This document shows positions 1 to 6,609 of a DNA stretch of 6,609 bases, piece by piece; within the stretch, counting starts at the first letter, position 1, and the number at the start of each line of letters is the position of its first letter. Position numbers and translations under genes: made by a program. Under the pieces are notes generated by a model. It searched no databases. It was given only the letters and a program-made list of their open reading frames with translations, and was not told the origin of the DNA. The stretch is from a virus (lineage: Duplodnaviria > Heunggongvirae > Uroviricota > Caudoviricetes), in IMG/VR virus record IMGVR_UViG_3300018483_000003, positions 1 to 6,609 of that record, one strand, 5' to 3'.

Positions 1-5
1 GTGCC

Positions 6-31
6 AAAAATAAAGGCCGACTATGCGGCCT
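6..31 (-). terminator. Putative intrinsic terminator downstream of the 100-aa membrane-protein gene
   Basis: Plus-strand GGCCG (15-19) and CGGCC (26-30) form a 5-bp GC stem with a 6-nt loop. On the minus-strand transcript the hairpin is followed by TTATTTTT (complement of plus 6-13). It lies about 68 nt past the ORF stop at 99. Confidence 0.4.
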
Positions 32-98
32 GAAATTACTTAACCAATGATGCTGCATATTCGATAAGGTAAAGTTTTGGAGCAAGCCAAATTTTCAG

Positions 99-401
99 TC
101 AGTCGAAATAATTGAAGAAAACAACAATAGAAGTAATCGCTATTCCTGATGTGACAAGTAGTGATAAAAGAACAATATCTTCATCATCTCCTTTATTCAA
201 TGCAAAAATCATCAGATAAACACACGCTATAATCACCAATACACAGATAGCCTGAATTCCAGCTGATGATACGGCGTGCCACATCAAAAGCTGATGGATG
301 ACATCAGGAATCTGTGCCTGGCTAAATGAAACAGCCGCGTCTATTCCATTACTGGCTTTTTGCAGTAGTTCTACGAGAATCTTGTTTGCTTGTTCTTCCA
401 T
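99..401 (-). CDS. Hypothetical small membrane protein (100 aa, two predicted transmembrane helices)
   Basis: ATG at 401-399 is preceded by GAGGTG (complement of 406-411) at 4-nt spacing. The protein has a hydrophilic N-terminal ~40 aa, then hydrophobic segments VSSAGIQAICVLVIIACVYLMIFAL and LLSLLVTSGIAITSIVVFF separated by the acidic loop NKGDDEDIV. AT-rich relative to the rest of the window by eye. No family recognised. Confidence 0.6.
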   Translation of the reverse strand: MEEQANKILVELLQKASNGIDAAVSFSQAQIPDVIHQLLMWHAVSSAGIQAICVLVIIACVYLMIFALNKGDDEDIVLLSLLVTSGIAITSIVVFFNYFD

Positions 402-511
402 ATCTCACCTCAAATAAGTGGTTTGCTGCCTAATTTCATTTTCTGGCGACCAACACAAGTCACACCCATTTCACTGCGTGGCTTGCTGTAATAAATTCGG
501 TTAGTTCAGAC

Positions 512-534
512 AATAAAAAACCCACCGAAGTGGG
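512..534 (-). terminator. Intrinsic terminator immediately after the 112-aa ORF
   Basis: Minus-strand transcript reads CCCAC-UUCG-GUGGG (plus 521-534), a 5-bp GC stem with a UUCG tetraloop, followed directly by UUUUUUAUUG (complement of plus 511-520). The hairpin abuts the TAG stop at 537-535. Confidence 0.6.
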
Positions 535-873
535 CTATGACCATTTTTTATTTGGATTTCGTTGGTGAGCATGATTAACAACTCTGTGCATTACATCCTC
601 ATATTTTTCATCTTCAATTTTTTCGACATCGCGAGGAAATGGTGTTGCTAATGCTTTGTCAACTTTATCCATTGGGTCTTCATTAATCTTATATTCAGGA
701 CCGTCATCTATAGCATTAAATCCAGGTGTTACACCGTTTTTTAATGCATATGCTATCCTCTTTTCCCATCTCGCTATTCTCCTCCTGTCTCGAGATGTAA
801 GACCTCTATCAGATACTTTTCTGTTTTGTCCGCGGTCAGGATTAACATAAATAGTCTTTTTCACCATAAGCAT
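535..873 (-). CDS. Hypothetical highly charged protein (112 aa from ATG 873; 114 aa if the TTG at 879 is used)
   Basis: ORF in the six-frame track. The ATG at 873-871 lies 2 nt after the N stop codon (TGA, 878-876), suggesting translational coupling; no strong SD. Product is rich in R/K/D/E and I recognise no family. AT-rich, and followed directly by a terminator. Confidence 0.55.
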   Translation of the reverse strand: MLMVKKTIYVNPDRGQNRKVSDRGLTSRDRRRIARWEKRIAYALKNGVTPGFNAIDDGPEYKINEDPMDKVDKALATPFPRDVEKIEDEKYEDVMHRVVNHAHQRNPNKKWS

Positions 874-875
874 AC

Positions 876-1181
876 TCAATAAGCACCGTACGGTAGTTTA
901 CTGTACAATTTTATTTTTTGGACTGCATGTATTTTGTTTCCTAATGGGTTTGAATCCTTGTAATAAATACTTCTATTTTTTCGAACGACTTCTTCTTTCT
1001 TCTTGCAGCAAAGGCTTCCTAGTGAAGCTGCTTTGTCTGCTCTGACGCAACCAGAGAGCTTTAGCGCAATTTTTCGCGCTAGTGCTTCATTACTGCGTCG
1101 CTCGGCAATAAGTTCTGCTCTGCGAGCTTTGTAGCGGCTTTTTGCCGTACCTTTGGATTCTTTCCAGACAATGGTTACCAT
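876..1181 (-). CDS. N: N-type transcription antitermination protein (phage-21-like arginine-rich motif)
   Basis: ATG at 1181-1179 with AAGGAG (complement of 1188-1193) 6 nt upstream. The N-terminus MVTIVWKESKGTAKSRYKARRAELIAERR contains the arginine-rich motif I recall for phage 21 N. The gene lies downstream of boxA/boxB elements and a pL-like promoter. The track ORF extends to 1211 but the longer start lacks an RBS. Confidence 0.8.
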   Translation of the reverse strand: MVTIVWKESKGTAKSRYKARRAELIAERRSNEALARKIALKLSGCVRADKAASLGSLCCKKKEEVVRKNRSIYYKDSNPLGNKIHAVQKIKLYSKLPYGAY

Positions 1182-1291
1182 GATGGTCTCCTTTAAGTGG
1201 CTTTGGCGCATGACGCGTCGAGGTGCTTATCTTCTCGATCGCTGTCTTGCAGCTGCAATTCGCGCCATCCCCAAAACCACTCAAGTTCTGG

Positions 1292-1331
1292 TCTCAACGG
1301 TTAGGTTGAGAGTCCGTTGATGTTAAAGAGC
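1292..1331 (-). promoter_or_regulatory. nutL: boxA (1323-1331) and boxB hairpin (1292-1311)
   Basis: Minus-strand RNA reads GCUCUUUAA (boxA consensus CGCUCUUUA), then UCUCAAC-CUAACC-GUUGAGA, a perfect 7-bp stem with a 6-nt loop. It sits in the N leader between the pL-like promoter and the N start. The same boxA and loop recur at nutR. Confidence 0.7.
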
Positions 1332-1373
1332 CTGCCAATCTGTTCCGTTTGGCTTCCAGCGTCCTGCTGATGG

Positions 1374-1407
1374 CTTAAATTTAAGACTTCTTAATTTATT
1401 GGTCAAG
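1374..1407 (-). promoter_or_regulatory. pL-like promoter with overlapping repressor operator (oL)
   Basis: Minus-strand -35 TTGACC (complement of 1401-1406), 17-bp spacer, -10 TAAATT (complement of 1378-1383). An 18-bp operator ATTTAAGACTTCTTAATT (1379-1396) overlaps the -10 and spacer and matches the oR sites. Confidence 0.55.
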
Positions 1408-1471
1408 TGCATTTTTGAAGAAAACTTAATTTTATGGGCGTGAATTTAGTTTGTCTTTGATTTTTAACGGG

Positions 1472-1497
1472 AAATAAAAAAGGGGCGAAAGCCCCTT
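1472..1497 (-). terminator. Intrinsic terminator overlapping the cI stop codon
   Basis: Stem 1480-1486 (AAGGGGC) pairs with 1491-1497 (GCCCCTT) around a GAAA loop. On the minus strand it is followed by UUUUUAUUU (complement of plus 1471-1479). It lies at the end of cI (stop 1498-1496) and would insulate pL/oL from pRM/pRE transcription. Confidence 0.65.
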
Positions 1498-2146
1498 AAG
1501 GAAGGTTTGCTAGCTTGGCATCAACGACAACGCCAATGATTTTACAGTTCCCATTGATTTCAATCATTGGGTATTGTGGATTGAGTGGTTTCAGGAATTT
1601 TCTACCGGCATCAATAACTAACTTTTTGAATGTCGCCTCGTTTTCTCCTTCAAGTTTGGCGACTACCAGCTTTCCATTACGTGGTTCGACTTCTGGGTCG
1701 ACGAGAATAATCATCCCCTCAGGAATACTCAGTCCTGCCGGGGCAGTCATTGAATCGCCTTTAACGTCGAGCCAAAAAGAGTCTTCAGAACAATCTACCG
1801 TTGTGTCGTACCAGTTATCTATTGCACGCCTATGATATGGCTCTACAGCTTCCATCCAACATCCTGCGCTTACCCAACTAATTAGAGGATACGAACCTCT
1901 TGGATCATGCCTGCTGTGATAGGCAATGTTTGAAAGACTATCCTCTCCTTTCAACAGGTAATCAGGGGAGCACTGCAAAGCCTTGGCTAAGGCCAATAGG
2001 TTTTCGCCATTGGGCTCAGTTTCAGATCGCTCCCATTGGGAAATAGCAACATTAGACACGCCAACCATCTTGCCAAGGGCAGCCTGCCTAATCTTGAGTT
2101 CTTTTCTGCGAGCGCGAATACGCTCACCCATCAGTTGTGTATTCAT
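1496..2146 (-). CDS. cI: CI-type prophage repressor (HTH_XRE N-terminal domain plus LexA/S24-like autocleavage domain; P22 C2-like)
   Basis: 216-aa ORF. HTH motif QAALGKMVGVSNVAISQWE; C-terminal domain with an Ala-Gly cleavage site (VSAGCW), catalytic Ser in GDSM and Lys in KLVVAK. Nearly identical, from memory, to the P22 C2 repressor. Divergent from cro across an operator region. Confidence 0.9.
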   Translation of the reverse strand: MNTQLMGERIRARRKELKIRQAALGKMVGVSNVAISQWERSETEPNGENLLALAKALQCSPDYLLKGEDSLSNIAYHSRHDPRGSYPLISWVSAGCWMEAVEPYHRRAIDNWYDTTVDCSEDSFWLDVKGDSMTAPAGLSIPEGMIILVDPEVEPRNGKLVVAKLEGENEATFKKLVIDAGRKFLKPLNPQYPMIEINGNCKIIGVVVDAKLANLP

Positions 2147-2212
2147 AGTTAAGACATCTTAAATAAACTTGACTTAAGATTCCTTTGGTGGATAATTTAA
2201 GTGTTCTTTAAT
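2147..2212. promoter_or_regulatory. oR region: three repressor operators with pR (rightward) and a pRM-like leftward promoter
   Basis: Three 18-bp sites of form A-TTAAG-N4-CTT-A-T: 2147-2164 AGTTAAGACATCTTAAAT, 2172-2189 ACTTAAGATTCCTTTGGT (weaker second half), and 2195-2212 ATTTAAGTGTTCTTTAAT. Centres are 25 and 23 bp apart. pR has -35 TTGACT (2169-2174) and -10 GATAAT (2191-2196), with cro ATG at 2227. The cI ATG at 2146 abuts the leftmost operator with no SD. Confidence 0.75.
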
Positions 2213-2226
2213 TTCGGAGCGAGTCT

Positions 2227-2412
2227 ATGTACAAAAAAGATGTTATTGACCACTTCGGAACCCAGCGTGCTGTTGCTAAAGCACTAGGCATTAGCGATGC
2301 AGCAGTCTCTCAGTGGAAAGAAGTTATCCCAGAGAAAGACGCCTATCGATTGGAAATCGTTACAGCTGGCGCCCTGAAGTATCAAGAAAGTGCTTACCGC
2401 CAAGCGGCATAA
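2227..2412 (+). CDS. cro: Cro repressor (61 aa, P22-Cro-like HTH protein)
   Basis: ATG at 2227 with GGAG (2216-2219) upstream. HTH motif QRAVAKALGISDAAVSQW. The sequence matches, from memory, P22 Cro almost exactly. First gene rightward of pR. Confidence 0.9.
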   Translation: MYKKDVIDHFGTQRAVAKALGISDAAVSQWKEVIPEKDAYRLEIVTAGALKYQESAYRQAA

Positions 2413-2419
2413 GCAAATT

Positions 2420-2459
2420 GCTCTTTAACAGTTCTGGCCTTTCACCTCTAACCGGGTGA
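2420..2459 (+). promoter_or_regulatory. nutR: boxA (2420-2428) and boxB hairpin (2442-2459)
   Basis: boxA GCTCTTTAA is identical to the nutL copy. boxB is UCACCU-CUAACC-GGGUGA, a 6-bp stem (one G-U pair) with the same CUAACC loop as nutL. It lies between the cro stop (2412) and cII. Confidence 0.7.
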
Positions 2460-2509
2460 GCAAACATCAGCGGCAAATCCATTGGGTGTGCCGCTATAAC
2501 TCAATATCA

Positions 2510-2550
2510 ATATAGGAAAATTAACAAATGGCACAAGCAAGCTACAGCAA
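2510..2550 (-). promoter_or_regulatory. pRE-like CII-activated promoter (TTGC-N6-TTGC motif inside the cII 5' end)
   Basis: Plus strand has GCAA(2537-2540)-N6-GCAA(2547-2550), which is TTGC-N6-TTGC on the minus strand, the CII tetramer site architecture of lambda pRE. A -10-like TATATT follows on the minus strand (about 2512-2517). The position overlapping the cII start matches lambda. Confidence 0.55.
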
Positions 2551-2824
2551 GCCAACACAGCGAGAAATTGATCGCGCTGAAACTGATTTACTCATCAACC
2601 TGTCAACGCTTACCCAGCGCGGTCTGGCAAAGATGATTGGCTGTCATGAATCGAAGATAAGCAGAACGGACTGGAGATTTATTGCTTCGGTTCTGTGTGC
2701 TTTCGGAATGGCATCAGACATCAGTCCGATTAGCAGGGCTTTTAAGTATGCGCTTGATGGACTCACAAAGAAAAAATCCCCGGCTGCCACCGAGGATTCT
2801 GAGCAAATTGATATGCAATTCTGA
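2528..2824 (+). CDS. cII: CII-like transcriptional activator (98 aa)
   Basis: Sits between nutR and the replication genes. The C-terminus KKKSPAATEDSEQIDMQF resembles the lambda CII C-terminus as I recall it (KKRPAATERSEQIQMEF). The central region is HTH-like and the pRE motif is embedded in its 5' end. Confidence 0.75.
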   Translation: MAQASYSKPTQREIDRAETDLLINLSTLTQRGLAKMIGCHESKISRTDWRFIASVLCAFGMASDISPISRAFKYALDGLTKKKSPAATEDSEQIDMQF

Positions 2825-2856
2825 GGTAATTACTGGATCAATCCACAGGAGTAATT

Positions 2857-3003
2857 ATGACAAAACAACTCAGTCCTTACCAGGACAAAATTCACAAACA
2901 CATACTACGTGATCGCTTCCTGTCCAGCTTCAAGCAGCCTGGTCGATTTCGGGCTGAGTTGGAAAAGGTGAAGCTGATGCAGAAGGAGAAAGGTCATGAG
3001 TAA
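2857..3003 (+). CDS. Possible small basic protein (48 aa) between cII and the O-like gene
   Basis: ATG at 2857 with GGAG (2848-2851) 5 nt upstream. Product [48 protein letters not shown]. Its stop (3001-3003) overlaps the O-like start (2996) as ATGAGTAA. Not in the supplied track because of its length. I recall an orf48 annotated at this position in P22, which if correct supports it. Confidence 0.4.
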
Positions 3004-3895
3004 CATATCTAATCTAGCCGAAGCCAGAGAGGCCAGAAGGCTACAACAACCGCATCAAAGCAGCGGTAAGGGGTATGCCTTGCTGCACCGTAAAATTATG
3101 GATGTGCCGTTTTACAAGGACGCAGAAGCAGCGCATCTGTGGGTTCACTTAATCCTCAAAGCAAAGCATACGCCTGAGTATGTAATGACTGACGCAGGAG
3201 AAATTCTGGTAGGCAGAGGGAAGCTACTTGGCGGTAGAAACTCTCTGGCGTTTGAAACAGGACTCAAACCAGATCGCGTTCAGTACCTGCTTAGAAAGTT
3301 CAAAAAACTCGGCATGATTGACTGGGTTTCACACGGTAAATTCTCAGTTTTCTCGGTAGAGAAATATGACGATTATCAGTCAAATTTTGTACCAGCAGAT
3401 TACCAGCAAATTACCACCTCAAAGCCAGCAATACCAATGCCTGCAAGCAATACTGTACCAGCAGATTACCAGCAAATTACCACAGATAAAGAATATAATA
3501 ATATTATCTCTAATACTGACGTATTAGAGAGTGCCACAGCAGACAAAAAGTCTGACAAGAAAAAACCTTCCGTTAGCTGTCAGGATGTTGTCGATGCTTA
3601 CCACGAAATCCTTCCTGAAGCGCCAAGAATCCGCGCACTGAATGACAAGCGTAAAAACCAGATCCGAACGTTCTGGCGCAAAGCCGGAGTGATAACCCGC
3701 CAGCTTGACGGGCATGGGTTCACGATGCAGGACTGGAGAAATTATTTGAGCTACGTAGGCGAAAATTGCCGATGGATGTTCGAAGAGCGCCCAAACCATC
3801 AACGCGGAACCGTCTGGCACAAAAAGGGATTTGATTTCCTGCTTAACGACAATACCTACCTGAAAGTTCGTGAGGGTGAACACGATGACCGATAA
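2996..3895 (+). CDS. Replication initiation protein (lambda O / P22 gp18 analogue) with DnaT-like C-terminal domain
   Basis: 299-aa ORF with AAGGAG (2983-2988) 7 nt upstream. It occupies the O position directly upstream of a DnaB-family helicase and contains internal iterons plus an AT-rich tract. The C-terminal region ([17 protein letters not shown]...WRKAGV) resembles DnaT/primosomal-type loader domains as far as I can recall. Confidence 0.8.
3389..3530. repeat. Iteron-like direct repeats plus AT-rich tract inside the O-like gene (putative ori)
   Basis: An identical 29-bp sequence GTACCAGCAGATTACCAGCAAATTACCAC occurs at 3389-3417 and 3455-3483. Each copy holds three TACCA(G/C) motifs at 11-bp phasing (3390, 3401, 3412 and 3456, 3467, 3478). 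An AT-rich tract follows at 3484-3530 (GATAAAGAATATAATAATATTATCTCTAATACTGACGTATTAGAG). Confidence 0.6.
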
Positions 3896-5321
3896 TTTTT
3901 ATGCGCCGCCCCATAGCATCGAGGCAGAGCAGGCGGTGATTGGTGGATTGCTTCTGGATGATGACAGCAGTGAGCGCGTCCAGAAAGTTCTGGCGATGCT
4001 GAAGCCTGATTCATTTTACGGCCGACCACACAAAATCCTTTTCGAAGAAATAACCAGAATGCACCGGGAGCAAAAGCCAGTAGATGGCCTGACGCTTTTC
4101 GATGAACTGGAGCGTAAATCGTTAACGGCGTCTGTTGGCGGTTTTGCTTATATCGCTGAGATCGCAAAAAACACGCCAAGCGCAGCAAACATCGTTGCCT
4201 ATGCAATGCAGGTTCGTGAAACCGCAATGGAACGCTACGCCATAAACCGCATGACTGAAGCGACGGAATTGCTCTATTCCCGCAACGGAATGACTGCAAC
4301 GCAGAAGTACGAAGCTATTCAGGCGATTTTCACGCAACTGACAGACCATGCAAAAACCGGATCGCGTCGCGGCCTTCGCTCATTTGGTGAGGTCATGGAA
4401 GACTGGGTTAGCGACCTTGAGAAGCGATTTGACCCGTCAGGCGAACAACGAGGAATGAGCACGGGGATCCCATCGCTGGACAGGATGCTGTCACCGAAAG
4501 GTCTGGTGAAAGGCTCTCTGTTTGTCATTGGCGCTCGCCCTAAGATGGGGAAAACGACGCTATACAGCCAGATGGCAATCAACTGTGCAGTGCATGAGAA
4601 AAAGCCTGCTCTGATGTTCAGCCTTGAAATGCCAGGTGACCAGATACTGGAAAAACTGGTAGGGCAGAAGTCAGGTGTTAACCCGAATATTTTTTACCTT
4701 CCGGCGACAAATGACGCTGATGACGGCTATCAGGGTGATTACGATGGTGACTTCAACAGGGCGATCGAAACAGCCAATCGCTTGAGTGAAATCGACATGC
4801 TTTACATCGACGACACGCCGGGATTATCTCTGGCTCAAATCGTCAGCGAAAGCCGTCGAATCAAGCGAGAAAAAGGATGTGTTGGCATGATTCTGGTCGA
4901 TTACCTGACACTAATGACCGCTGAAAAGGCCGATCGCAACGACCTTGCTTACGGCATGATCACCAAAGGACTGAAGAACCTTGCCAAAGAGCTTGATTGC
5001 GTTGTTGTGCTTCTGACGCAGCTTAACCGCGCATTGGAAAGCCGAACCAATAAACGCCCATTACCAAGTGACTCGCGAGATACAGGGCAGATTGAACAGG
5101 ATTGCGATTATTGGGTTGGGATCCATCGGGAAGGTGCTTTTGATGACAGCGTTCCTCCTGGTGAAACCGAACTAATCCTTCGCCTCAATCGTCATGGCAA
5201 TACCGGCACGGTGTATTGCATACAGGCAAATGGCGCTATTTATGACACAGACCAACAGTCTGCTGAAATGCGCCGCCGTGAACGCGAGGAACCGCAGTCC
5301 AAGAAGAAAGGAGGATTCTGA
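3885..5321 (+). CDS. DnaB-family replicative DNA helicase (478 aa)
   Basis: ATG at 3885 with GAGGGTG (3872-3878) upstream, overlapping the O-like stop by 11 nt. N-terminal DnaB signature PHSIEAEQAVIGGLLLD, Walker A GARPKMGKTT and Walker B-like MILVDYLTLM. GTG codons at 3870 and 3876 are possible alternative starts. Confidence 0.9.
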   Translation: MTDNFYAPPHSIEAEQAVIGGLLLDDDSSERVQKVLAMLKPDSFYGRPHKILFEEITRMHREQKPVDGLTLFDELERKSLTASVGGFAYIAEIAKNTPSAANIVAYAMQVRETAMERYAINRMTEATELLYSRNGMTATQKYEAIQAIFTQLTDHAKTGSRRGLRSFGEVMEDWVSDLEKRFDPSGEQRGMSTGIPSLDRMLSPKGLVKGSLFVIGARPKMGKTTLYSQMAINCAVHEKKPALMFSLEMPGDQILEKLVGQKSGVNPNIFYLPATNDADDGYQGDYDGDFNRAIETANRLSEIDMLYIDDTPGLSLAQIVSESRRIKREKGCVGMILVDYLTLMTAEKADRNDLAYGMITKGLKNLAKELDCVVVLLTQLNRALESRTNKRPLPSDSRDTGQIEQDCDYWVGIHREGAFDDSVPPGETELILRLNRHGNTGTVYCIQANGAIYDTDQQSAEMRRREREEPQSKKKGGF

Positions 5322-5349
5322 TGACCATCTACATCAGTGAGCTTGTAAC

Positions 5350-5381
5350 AGGCCTGCTGGTAATCGCAGGCCTTTTTATTT
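5350..5381 (+). terminator. Strong intrinsic terminator after the helicase gene (tR2-like position)
   Basis: Perfect 8-bp stem AGGCCTGC (5350-5357) pairing with GCAGGCCT (5366-5373), an 8-nt loop, then TTTTATTT (5374-5381). It sits between the helicase stop (5321) and the next ORF (5398). Confidence 0.7.
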
Positions 5382-5397
5382 GGGGGAGAGGGAAGTC

Positions 5398-5580
5398 ATG
5401 AATCTTGACGAGCAAGATGCACAAACTATTAGCTCATACATAAGGGCATCAAGACCAGATTACAAAGGTCCGGTATTCGTAGATTTATCTCGCCTTGAGG
5501 AGATTTACATGTGGGAAGCAAAGCTACGTACGCATCTTTTTATTCGTAAGATGACTAGCAACATTACAAAACCAATGTAA
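5398..5580 (+). CDS. Hypothetical protein (60 aa)
   Basis: ATG at 5398 preceded by purine-rich GGGAGAGGGAAG (5383-5394). The track ORF starts at an upstream TTG (5380). Product MNLDEQDAQTISSYIRASRPDYKGPVF...; no family recognised. Confidence 0.5.
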   Translation: MNLDEQDAQTISSYIRASRPDYKGPVFVDLSRLEEIYMWEAKLRTHLFIRKMTSNITKPM

Positions 5581-5594
5581 CTGGAGAGGTGAAT

Positions 5595-5810
5595 ATGAGC
5601 ACACTCGCAGACCTTATTCATGCCGATATGGCGGAAGATGGAGCAAGGCGTAATAGGTACTGGAAATCATCAAGCCTTCCAGTTTGTGAAAGATTCAACC
5701 ACAGGCCAAAACCAAAACGTAGCCGACGAGACAAAGTATTGAAAAAACTCATGCAAATTAACATGGCTGGTTTTGTCAGATTCGTGAGTGAAACGACTAA
5801 CGGGGATTGA
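5595..5810 (+). CDS. Hypothetical basic protein (71 aa)
   Basis: ATG at 5595 with GGAGAGG (5584-5590) upstream; GTG at 5589 is an alternative start. Contains a very basic segment RPKPKRSRRDKVLKK. The stop (5808-5810) is 1 nt before the next ORF's ATG. Confidence 0.5.
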   Translation: MSTLADLIHADMAEDGARRNRYWKSSSLPVCERFNHRPKPKRSRRDKVLKKLMQINMAGFVRFVSETTNGD

Positions 5811-5811
5811 T

Positions 5812-6078
5812 ATGGACGAATCAAGAAAGCAGTTTGAAGAATGGTTTGAAAATTACACCGGATGTGATCCTAAAAATAAAATATACGCCAATATGGTTGA
5901 GATGTATTGGCAAGCGTGGCAGGCATCGCGAGCAGCTATCGAGATTGAGTGTCCTGGAAAAAGAGAGCGTGAGGCATTTTCTACCGATTTCGAGGATGGG
6001 GTCACATTTGGTTATAACGACGCAATTAGTGAATGCGAAGGACGGATTCGCGCTGCTGGAGTCAAAGTGAAGGAGTGA
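5812..6078 (+). CDS. Hypothetical acidic protein (88 aa)
   Basis: ATG at 5812 directly after the previous stop; the track uses GTG at 5788. Product MDESRKQFEEWFENYTGCDPKNKIYANMVEMYWQAWQ...; Trp- and acid-rich. The stop is followed by the ninB RBS. Confidence 0.55.
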   Translation: MDESRKQFEEWFENYTGCDPKNKIYANMVEMYWQAWQASRAAIEIECPGKREREAFSTDFEDGVTFGYNDAISECEGRIRAAGVKVKE

Positions 6079-6080
6079 CG

Positions 6081-6491
6081 ATGAAGCAAACAATCTTCCT
6101 CCGAACTAAGCAACAACAGCAAGCCGCAATCAACGCCATCCTCGCAACACCACTCGATAAAGACAAGCCAGTCACCATCCGCATTACTGACTACAAGCGC
6201 AACCTTGACCAGAACGCAAAATTTCACGCGATGCTGGCGGATATCGCTCGTCAGGTTCAATGGTGCGATAAATGGCTAAAACCAGAACAATGGAAGGTTT
6301 TGTTGATCAGCGGTCATGCAGTGGCAACAAAACAGGAAGCTGATGTTTTGCCCGGCCTTGAAGGCGAATACGTCAACATTCGCGAAAGCAGCGCGCAGAT
6401 GAGTGTGAAGCGTATGGCAAGTCTAATTGAGTACACGACAGCATGGGCTATTGGTCAGGGTGTCAGATTTACCGACAGGAGGTACGAATGA
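6081..6491 (+). CDS. ninB: NinB (Orf-family recombination mediator, 136 aa)
   Basis: ATG at 6081 with AAGGAG (6070-6075) 5 nt upstream. Motifs [33 protein letters not shown] resemble lambda NinB/Orf as I recall it. The track's upstream extension (6033) overlaps the preceding gene and lacks an RBS. Confidence 0.85.
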
Positions 6492-6609
6492 GACGACAGC
6501 GACGAAGTATCACCGACATCATCTGCGAAAACTGCAAATACCTTCCAACGAAACGCTCCAGAAATAAACGCAAGCCAATCCCAAAAGAATCTGACGTAAA
6601 AACCTTCAA
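6488..6609 (+). CDS. ninE: NinE (5' part only; truncated by the window end)
   Basis: ATG at 6488 overlaps the ninB stop as ATGA. The translation [40 protein letters not shown] matches my recollection of the lambda NinE N-terminus. The ORF is open to the window end. Confidence 0.7.

Follow-up and report, generated by a model that had tools for sequence, protein, structure and literature searches.

Two nut sites with a common boxB loop and different stems in a phage 21-like early control region

Two short elements in a 6,609-nt stretch of viral DNA (Caudoviricetes; IMG/VR record IMGVR_UViG_3300018483_000003, positions 1 to 6,609; hereafter, the window) carry the same boxA and a hairpin with the same CUAACC loop, on stems that differ completely in sequence. 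This raises the questions of whether these are the antitermination sites of a lambdoid phage, which N protein would read them, and what two unlike stems around one loop say about selection on boxB. We find it very probable (around 95%) that the two elements are nutL and nutR of a lambdoid phage whose immunity and N specificity are those of phage 21. The data in support are the sequence, fold, and position of the elements, their identity to the phage 21 sites, the identity of the arginine-rich motif (ARM) of the N protein to a peptide of solved structure, and the co-variation of ARM and boxB among relatives. The finding is already known: the nut sites of phage 21 are annotated in GenBank, the complex of its N with boxB has been solved (PDB 1NYB), and a passage of PMC9074901 refers to a description from the 1980s (Franklin 1985) of these sites with their unlike stems and common loop. 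The value of the analysis is thus in the annotation. It fixes the window as the phage 21-immunity, phage 21-N-specificity early region of a mEp235/Kapi1-like phage, and gives exact coordinates for boxA, boxB, PL, PR, and N.

Position and layout of the two sites

The window represents a lambdoid early control region with the following features.

99 to 401, minus strand: ORF of no assigned function
519 to 536, minus strand: intrinsic terminator after N and nun (scan; 7-bp stem, 4 GC pairs, T-run)
535 to 864, minus strand: Nun homologue
876 to 1181, minus strand: N antiterminator gene (101 aa; ATG at 1181, AAGGAG 6 nt upstream)
1095 to 1160, minus strand: codons of N residues 8-29, the predicted boxB-reading arginine-rich motif (22/22 residues identical to PDB 1NYB chain A)
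1292 to 1311, minus strand: boxB of nutL (7-bp stem UCUCAAC/GUUGAGA, loop CUAACC)
1321 to 1331, minus strand: boxA of nutL (GCUCUUUAACA on the leftward transcript; counterpart of boxA-L of phage 21, OL657228.1)
1378 to 1406, minus strand: PL promoter, TTGACC-17-TAAATT (consensus scan; P22/21-type operators overlap)
1497 to 1480, minus strand: intrinsic terminator after the repressor (scan)
1496 to 2146, minus strand: P22 c2-like repressor
2169 to 2196, plus strand: PR promoter, TTGACT-16-GATAAT, driving cro and nutR (consensus scan; HK629 and mEp235 have a promoter annotation there)
2227 to 2412, plus strand: P22-type cro
2420 to 2430, plus strand: boxA of nutR (GCUCUUUAACA; cro stop codon 8 nt upstream)
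2441 to 2460, plus strand: boxB of nutR (stem (U)UCACCU/GGGUGA(G), loop CUAACC; the 6-bp version is 2442-2459)
2461 to 2527, plus strand: interval from nutR to cII, putative tR1 (Rho-dependent) zone read through by N, by analogy
2528 to 2824, plus strand: cII
2857 to 3003, plus strand: DUF2740 ORF
2996 to 3895, plus strand: O-like initiator
3885 to 5321, plus strand: DnaB-type helicase
6081 to 6491, plus strand: ninB, preceded by small ORFs

The nutL site reads GCTCTTTAA-CATCAACGGAC-TCTCAAC-CTAACC-GTTGAGA on the minus strand (1331 to 1292), and the nutR site reads GCTCTTTAA-CAGTTCTGGCCTT-TCACCT-CTAACC-GGGTGA on the plus strand (2420 to 2459). The respective transcripts are GCUCUUUAA-CAUCAACGGAC-UCUCAAC-CUAACC-GUUGAGA (leftward, 1331 down to 1292) and GCUCUUUAA-CAGUUCUGGCCUU-UCACCU-CUAACC-GGGUGA (rightward, 2420-2459). 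An outer U.G is possible in the nutR stem, giving 7 pairs (2441-2460). The initial annotation had reported an identical boxA at both sites, which is exact and extends to 11 nt (GCTCTTTAACA). Counted from this 11-mer, 9-11 nt separate boxA from the hairpin at both sites, and neither hairpin has a T-run on its 3' side.

The ORFs and the scan for promoters and terminators place nutL between PL and N, nutR just past cro and ahead of cII, and both upstream of terminators. The same layout is found in the annotated records of phage 21 and lambda. The pL start and OL1-3 of phage 21 map to window positions 1371 and 1379-1460. With a leftward transcript starting near 1371, boxA-L lies at about +41 and boxB-L at about +61, and nutL extends from about +41 to +80. 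The tR1 annotation of phage 21 corresponds to window 2507-2510.

The region is closely related to several known phages. Window 959-2530 is 98.8% identical to Escherichia phage 21 (OL657228.1), lambda imm21, and DE3, and window 850-2530 is 99.6% identical to vB_EcoP_Kapi1 and 99.5% to mEp235, which is also the best match of the whole window (98.5% identity, 84% coverage). The curated features of OL657228.1 include boxA-L, stem_loop nutL, the pL start, OL1-3, the OR operators, boxA-R, stem_loop nutR, and tR1. With the coordinate offset used for this comparison (locus = window + 542), its boxA-L, nutL, boxA-R, and nutR fall on window 1324-1331, 1292-1311, 2420-2427, and 2442-2459. A 75-nt segment around nutR is identical to phage 21, and the 75-nt segment around nutL has a single mismatch, in the spacer. 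The records of HK629 and mEp235 have a 'putative Nut boxA' at the matching places.

The Nun gene lies 11 nt past the stop codon of N. Its product is identical to HK022 Nun (PDB 6ALG) at 108 of 109 residues, and its ARM is identical to that of 1HJI. The N-Nun tandem is found in 60 of 80 related loci and is annotated in mEp235.

In the general mechanism of N-dependent antitermination, boxA RNA binds NusB-NusE, the ARM of N binds boxB, and N, NusA, and NusG assemble on RNA polymerase, resulting in a processive termination-resistant complex (PMC8632103). Going by the literature on lambda, P22, and phage 21 for Nus factor recruitment, binding, and antitermination, transcription from PL or PR would yield a linear boxA RNA that recruits the NusB-NusE of the host. 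The arginine-rich helix of the phage-encoded N (residues ~8-29) would bind the boxB hairpin, reading the CUAACC hexaloop and the adjoining upper stem. The RNA loop would tether N, which with NusA and NusG would turn the polymerase termination-resistant. Leftward, the modified polymerase would pass the terminator at 536-519 downstream of N and nun, and beyond; by analogy with lambda tL1, this terminator is a likely target of the N-modified polymerase. Rightward, it would pass the tR1 zone between nutR and cII, and beyond.

Fold, chance expectation, and the cognate N protein

The exact boxA 11-mer occurs twice in the window, where 0.01 matches are expected, and at least two copies were found in 0/200 shuffles. 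This test was used in place of one based on a 9-mer with one mismatch allowed, which gave 3 matches in the window against 2.08 expected and is not significant alone. The CTAACC motif occurs four times over both strands of the window. It is flanked by a stem only at nutL and nutR (7 pairs each), the remaining two copies having 0-1 flanking pairs.

Folding recovered both hairpins as they had been drawn. In isolation, nutL folds as (((((((......))))))) with -7.3 kcal/mol (z -5.8, 0/200 shuffles as good) and nutR as ((((((......)))))) with -6.3 kcal/mol (z -2.05, 9/200 shuffles as good). In a 51-nt context the hairpins are still the MFE or the centroid structure, with fold energies that are ordinary relative to shuffles (z -1.5 and 0.0), and the opposite strands fold into different structures that are equally unremarkable. 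The stability of both hairpins is modest. A scan of the whole window at a permissive E-value against 4227 Rfam families brought up no nut or boxB family, the sole match being a chance snoRNA (E 0.48), so that Rfam contributes neither an independent score for the nut assignment nor an argument against it.

The sites are associated with a fitting N protein. The product of the N gene matches PHROG 271 'anti-termination protein N-like' (E 4.6e-31), and its match to Pfam N_peptide is weak. Its residues 8-29 (ESKGTAKSRYKARRAELIAERR) are identical over 22/22 positions to chain A of 1NYB ('Probable regulatory protein N'), an entry that a passage of PMC6061696 attributes to Cilley & Williamson 2003. 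This structure contains a phage 21 N peptide and a boxB RNA with the CUAACC hexaloop, the fold of which is GNRA-like (UMAC), with a closing C-C pair (PMC12550061). The initial annotation had noted a match to the boxB of phage 21 and an agreement with the arginine-rich motif of N. The first turns out to be a base-for-base identity at both sites, which OL657228.1 annotates at the same positions, and the second is borne out by the 1NYB peptide; by ARM identity and hexaloop, N and the hairpins fall in the same specificity group, so that the mismatch of groups named in the initial annotation as a refuting outcome did not arise. Judged on sequence, the CUAACC hexaloop, the ARM, and the identity of the nut sites assign the system to the phage 21-specificity class of N and boxB.

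Over its full length, N has 80% identity to its phage 21 counterpart. Most of this identity falls in the ~60 N-terminal aa, the first ~57 of which are identical, and a different sequence type is found in the C-terminal ~40 residues (...KDSNPLGNKIHAVQKIKLYSKLPYGAY here vs. the lambda-like ...SKPRSEMGVTCVGRQKIKLGSKPLI in phage 21), namely that of mEp235/HK620. The protein is a mosaic, and the C-terminal difference leaves its RNA specificity unaffected. A comparable C-terminal replacement distinguishes the gp24 of P22 and L, with unchanged specificity (PMC8022706). Since the C-terminus differs from that of phage 21, the part of N that contacts RNA polymerase cannot be equated with the characterised protein.

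Could the hairpins nevertheless have arisen by chance or serve another purpose, for instance as terminators, RNase III sites, or Nun targets? We rejected the common hexaloop as stand-alone evidence against this, since it arises in 420/2000 simulations (21%), and the Nun gene is adjacent. Yet, the 11-nt boxA is repeated (0/200 shuffles), the spacing is fixed, and the positions are correct. Chance is excluded by the conjunction: the 11-mer boxA is present twice, each copy has its hairpin at the proper spacing, the loops are identical, and the genomic positions are correct. The missing T-runs also count against this reading. Nun arrests lambda transcription by binding the boxB of lambda, for which it is specific (PMC5386594), and no lambda-type boxB was found in the window; hence, we rejected Nun targeting of these hairpins, and there is no conflict between carrying Nun and having a phage 21-type nut system. 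The phage 21 annotation, the identity of the nut sites to those annotated there, the match of the ARM to 1NYB, and the 11-mer test effectively refute this reading, whose probability we regard as negligible.

Stem differences and conservation among relatives

With the loop as anchor, not one of the seven pairs is shared by the nutL and nutR stems: both bases are altered in five pairs and a single base in the other two (C-G vs. U.G, and U-A vs. U.G). All seven remain Watson-Crick or G.U in both sites. Among 8 distinct boxB variants, 94.6% of the cells are paired, a share that drops to 19-52% once the partners are slid. These results confirm the initial description of identical CUAACC loops on stems that are wholly different in sequence yet paired. 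The description went on to call this a covariation signature showing that stem structure and loop sequence are selected, which we support with a reservation: pairing is indeed kept in two helices, but these come from one paralogous pair. The "covariation" is best read as a single comparison of two paralogous sites and not as a phylogenetic covariation signal, since each stem is almost invariant over about 80 related loci and no intermediate stems were found there. The contrast between nutL and nutR shows that two different helices are both acceptable; that the sequence of the stem is irrelevant does not follow. We propose that the hairpins combine different helices with one loop because specificity resides in the loop and the helical shape.

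The related loci are 80 IMG/VR loci encoding relatives of N. Their nutL stem is UCUCAAC/GUUGAGA and their nutR stem UUCACCU/GGGUGAG, with almost no exceptions. The loop varies to CUAACA in nutR of HK629-like phages and, in one case, to CUAAUC, and in a few nutR sites the lower stem contains a C/A or A/A mismatch while the upper ACCU/GGGU pairs are kept. These tolerated mismatches and loops suggest that the exact requirements are looser than an identical loop. The 11-nt boxA shows no change across the distinct haplotypes of nutL (26) and nutR (17). Across the nutL haplotypes, boxB has one singleton change and the spacer varies at 4 positions; across those of nutR, changes in boxB fall on three adjacent positions in and just 3' of the loop, and those in the spacer on 6 positions. 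Both boxA and boxB are thus constrained, though overall divergence is low. A collection-wide search for GCTCTTTAA-N10-24-CTAACC gave 131 matches, mostly chance (stems of 0-2 pairs), and no third type of stem; the genuine variants that it added were all nutR-type sites with a mismatched lower stem.

The history of the two stems can be read in another way. The sites could be genuine nut sites whose stems are separately derived or acquired helices, brought to the same loop by convergence or recombination, with no compensatory evolution from one ancestor. The comparison would then say that two helices are tolerated, not that pairing was maintained through change. The lack of intermediates fits this idea, as the ~170 copies of the sites in related loci fall into two types of stem, each almost invariant, and so does the mosaicism of the region, visible in the C-terminus of N, in the swaps of ARM and boxB modules, and in the junction of P22-like c2 and cro with a phage 21-type N. 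However, five of the seven pairs differ on both sides and yet all are paired, which structural constraint predicts whatever the historical route, and P22 behaves alike, with a nutL stem GCGC.../...GCGC and a nutR stem CCGC.../...GCGG around a common GACAA loop. We see a separate origin as a possible, if doubtful, account of the stems. It is also conceivable that stem sequence matters too, such that the helices are not interchangeable and each is selected, with different affinities for N or contacts with NusA tuning leftward relative to rightward antitermination. In dozens of haplotypes the stems are more conserved than the adjoining spacer, and the upper four pairs of nutR (ACCU/GGGU) are kept even when the lower stem has a mismatch. 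However, the loci have diverged little and the flanks 3' of boxB are likewise well conserved, so that the invariance of the stems may reflect recent common ancestry. We consider such tuning unlikely.

A natural swap bears on the recognition of boxB by N. In two of the related loci (L075 and L076), N is ~84% identical to that of the window over residues 34-101 and has a different, unrelated ARM (DNARNRRRARRQAQREQ; DNARNRRRARRQAQREQAMKEQ). At both of their nut sites, UCCCGC-CGAAAU-GCGGGA stands in place of the phage 21 hairpins, and the boxA GCTCTTTAACA is kept together with its flanks, including the end of cro. This type of ARM is that of HK620, HK140, mEp213, and JEP4. ARM and boxB are thus exchanged jointly, as one module on an unchanged scaffold of N and boxA, providing independent comparative support for the predicted recognition of boxB by the ARM. 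The HK620-type pair (ARM DNARNRRRARRQAQREQ with boxB UCCCGC-CGAAAU-GCGGGA) may represent a further specificity class. The swap illustrates how classes of N specificity are exchanged, and it could guide the design of orthogonal RNA-peptide tethering pairs.

Comparison with phage 21, lambda, and P22

We compared the sites with the nut sites of phage 21, lambda, and P22, reading those of the last two from the genome sequences. The boxA GCTCTTTAACA fits the (C)GCUCUU(U)A consensus and can be set beside CGCTCTTA of lambda and CGCTCTTTA of P22. The nut sequences read from the genomes are CGCTCTTA(A/C) with GCCCTGAA(G/A)AAGGGC in lambda and CGCTCTTTA with GCGCTGACAAAGCGC or CCGCCGACAACGCGG in P22, distributed as follows.

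Lambda nutL: CGCTCTTAA ... GCCCTGAAGAAGGGC
Lambda nutR: CGCTCTTAC ... GCCCTGAAAAAGGGC
P22 nutL: CGCTCTTTAAC ... GCGCTGACAAAGCGC
P22 nutR: CGCTCTTTACC ... CCGCCGACAACGCGG

The likeness to phage 21, and also to lambda imm21, DE3, HK629, mEp235, and Kapi1, covers boxA and boxB base for base, an identical ARM of N, and the order, spacing, and position of the sites relative to PL, N, cro, and cII. The differences from phage 21, besides the C-terminus of N, are one base of the nutL spacer (A here, G in phage 21), the presence here of Nun downstream of N, and a DnaB-type helicase in place of lambda P. As to the solved complex, the 1NYB peptide corresponds to residues 8-29 of the N in the window and the hexaloop is CUAACC, 1NYB being an in vitro complex of fragments.

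The same architecture is found in lambda and P22. Lambda has a boxA (CGCUCUUA), a spacer, and a boxB hairpin, at sites upstream of N and after cro, and an ARM at the N terminus of N. In contrast, its boxB has a 5-bp GCCCU/AGGGC stem and a GAAAA or GAAGA pentaloop, so that the stems of its two sites are identical and the loops one base apart, the opposite of the pattern described here. In P22, where the antiterminator is gp24 and boxA is CGCUCUUUA, the boxB stems also differ (GCGCU.../...AGCGC vs. CCGCC.../...GCGG) around a common GACAA loop, and c2 and cro are ~84% identical to those of the window. P22 differs in this pentaloop, in its ARM (GNAKTRRHERRRKLAIERD), and in its N, which is ~32% identical. 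Lambda, P22, and phage 21 have in common the boxA-spacer-boxB plan and the positions of the sites, and loop and ARM are specific to each system. In P22 and phage 21, the loop is retained between nutL and nutR and it is the stem that changes, most extensively in phage 21, whereas lambda retains the stem and changes one base of the loop.

N as a mosaic protein, with Nun beside it

The N gene of the window (876-1181, minus strand, 101 aa) and its neighbour hold the following features.

876 to about 1000, minus strand: the C-terminal ~40 codons of N, of a sequence type unlike phage 21
535-864, minus strand: transcription-termination factor Nun, with 108/109 identities to the Nun of HK022 (PDB 6ALG)

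The first ~57 aa of N are identical to phage 21 N, and the DNA homology to this phage begins only at position 959 of the window. In the C-terminal part, phage 21 N differs, whereas the mEp235/HK620-like phages have the same type as the window. N is a mosaic, and its C-terminal part would, by analogy with lambda, contact RNA polymerase. The Nun gene lies downstream, 11 nt from the stop codon of N, and this tandem is present in 60 of the 80 IMG/VR loci that encode N relatives. The phage therefore combines an N antiterminator of the phage 21 type with an exclusion factor specific for the lambda boxB. No boxB of the lambda type was found in the window.

Variation of boxB and of the arginine-rich motif among relatives

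Among these loci, several differ from the window at the nut sites.

L075: 3726-3810, plus strand, and around 2633, minus strand: alternative nut sites, likewise in L076
L004: about 3871, plus strand, and about 5563, minus strand: variant boxB in nutL and nutR
L002 (HK629), about 2453, and L028, L110, L137, L192 and L176: variant nutR

The N proteins of L075 and L076 have a different arginine-rich motif (ARM), DNARNRRRARRQAQREQ, of the HK620/HK140/mEp213 type, and both nut sites in each locus carry the boxB UCCCGC-CGAAAU-GCGGGA, while boxA and the flanks are unaltered. ARM and boxB are exchanged together as a module, and this pair may represent a separate specificity class.

In L004, both nut sites show a parallel change, with A replacing G immediately 3' of the loop, which turns a C-G pair into a C/A mismatch in nutL and a U.G pair into U-A in nutR. 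The N protein of this locus is 100% identical. The nutR loop reads CUAACA in 9 copies, including HK629, and CUAAUC in one. Some nutR variants have a C/A or A/A mismatch in the lower stem and keep the upper ACCU/GGGU pairs. Such natural nutR variants indicate where change is tolerated.

From cII to the O-like gene, and the immunity region

2773-2800, minus strand: strong terminator-like hairpin (12 pairs and a T-run), antisense to cII at its 3' end
2857-3003, plus strand: small DUF2740 ORF between cII and O
3383-3483 and 3507-3530, plus strand: direct and inverted repeats within the O-like gene

In HK629, the oop RNA terminator is annotated at the place of the hairpin. The DUF2740 ORF carries the label "tail protein" in PHROG 1913, which is implausible given its location between cII and O and looks like an artefact of library annotation. 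The O-like gene contains a 35-nt direct repeat whose copies are 94% identical and lie 66 nt apart, with the sub-repeat CCAGCAnATTACCA inside shifted by 11 nt; after it comes an inverted repeat of 10 bp, which is perfect. These are probably iterons of a replication origin within the initiator gene, where the ori of phage 21 is also annotated.

The repressor and cro (1496-2412) resemble P22 c2/cro, with about 84% DNA identity to P22 and a Pfam P22_Cro match for cro. The operators are also of the P22 type, whereas N and nut are of the phage 21 type and not of the P22 gp24 type. It is known that imm21 and P22 immC are related in this way.
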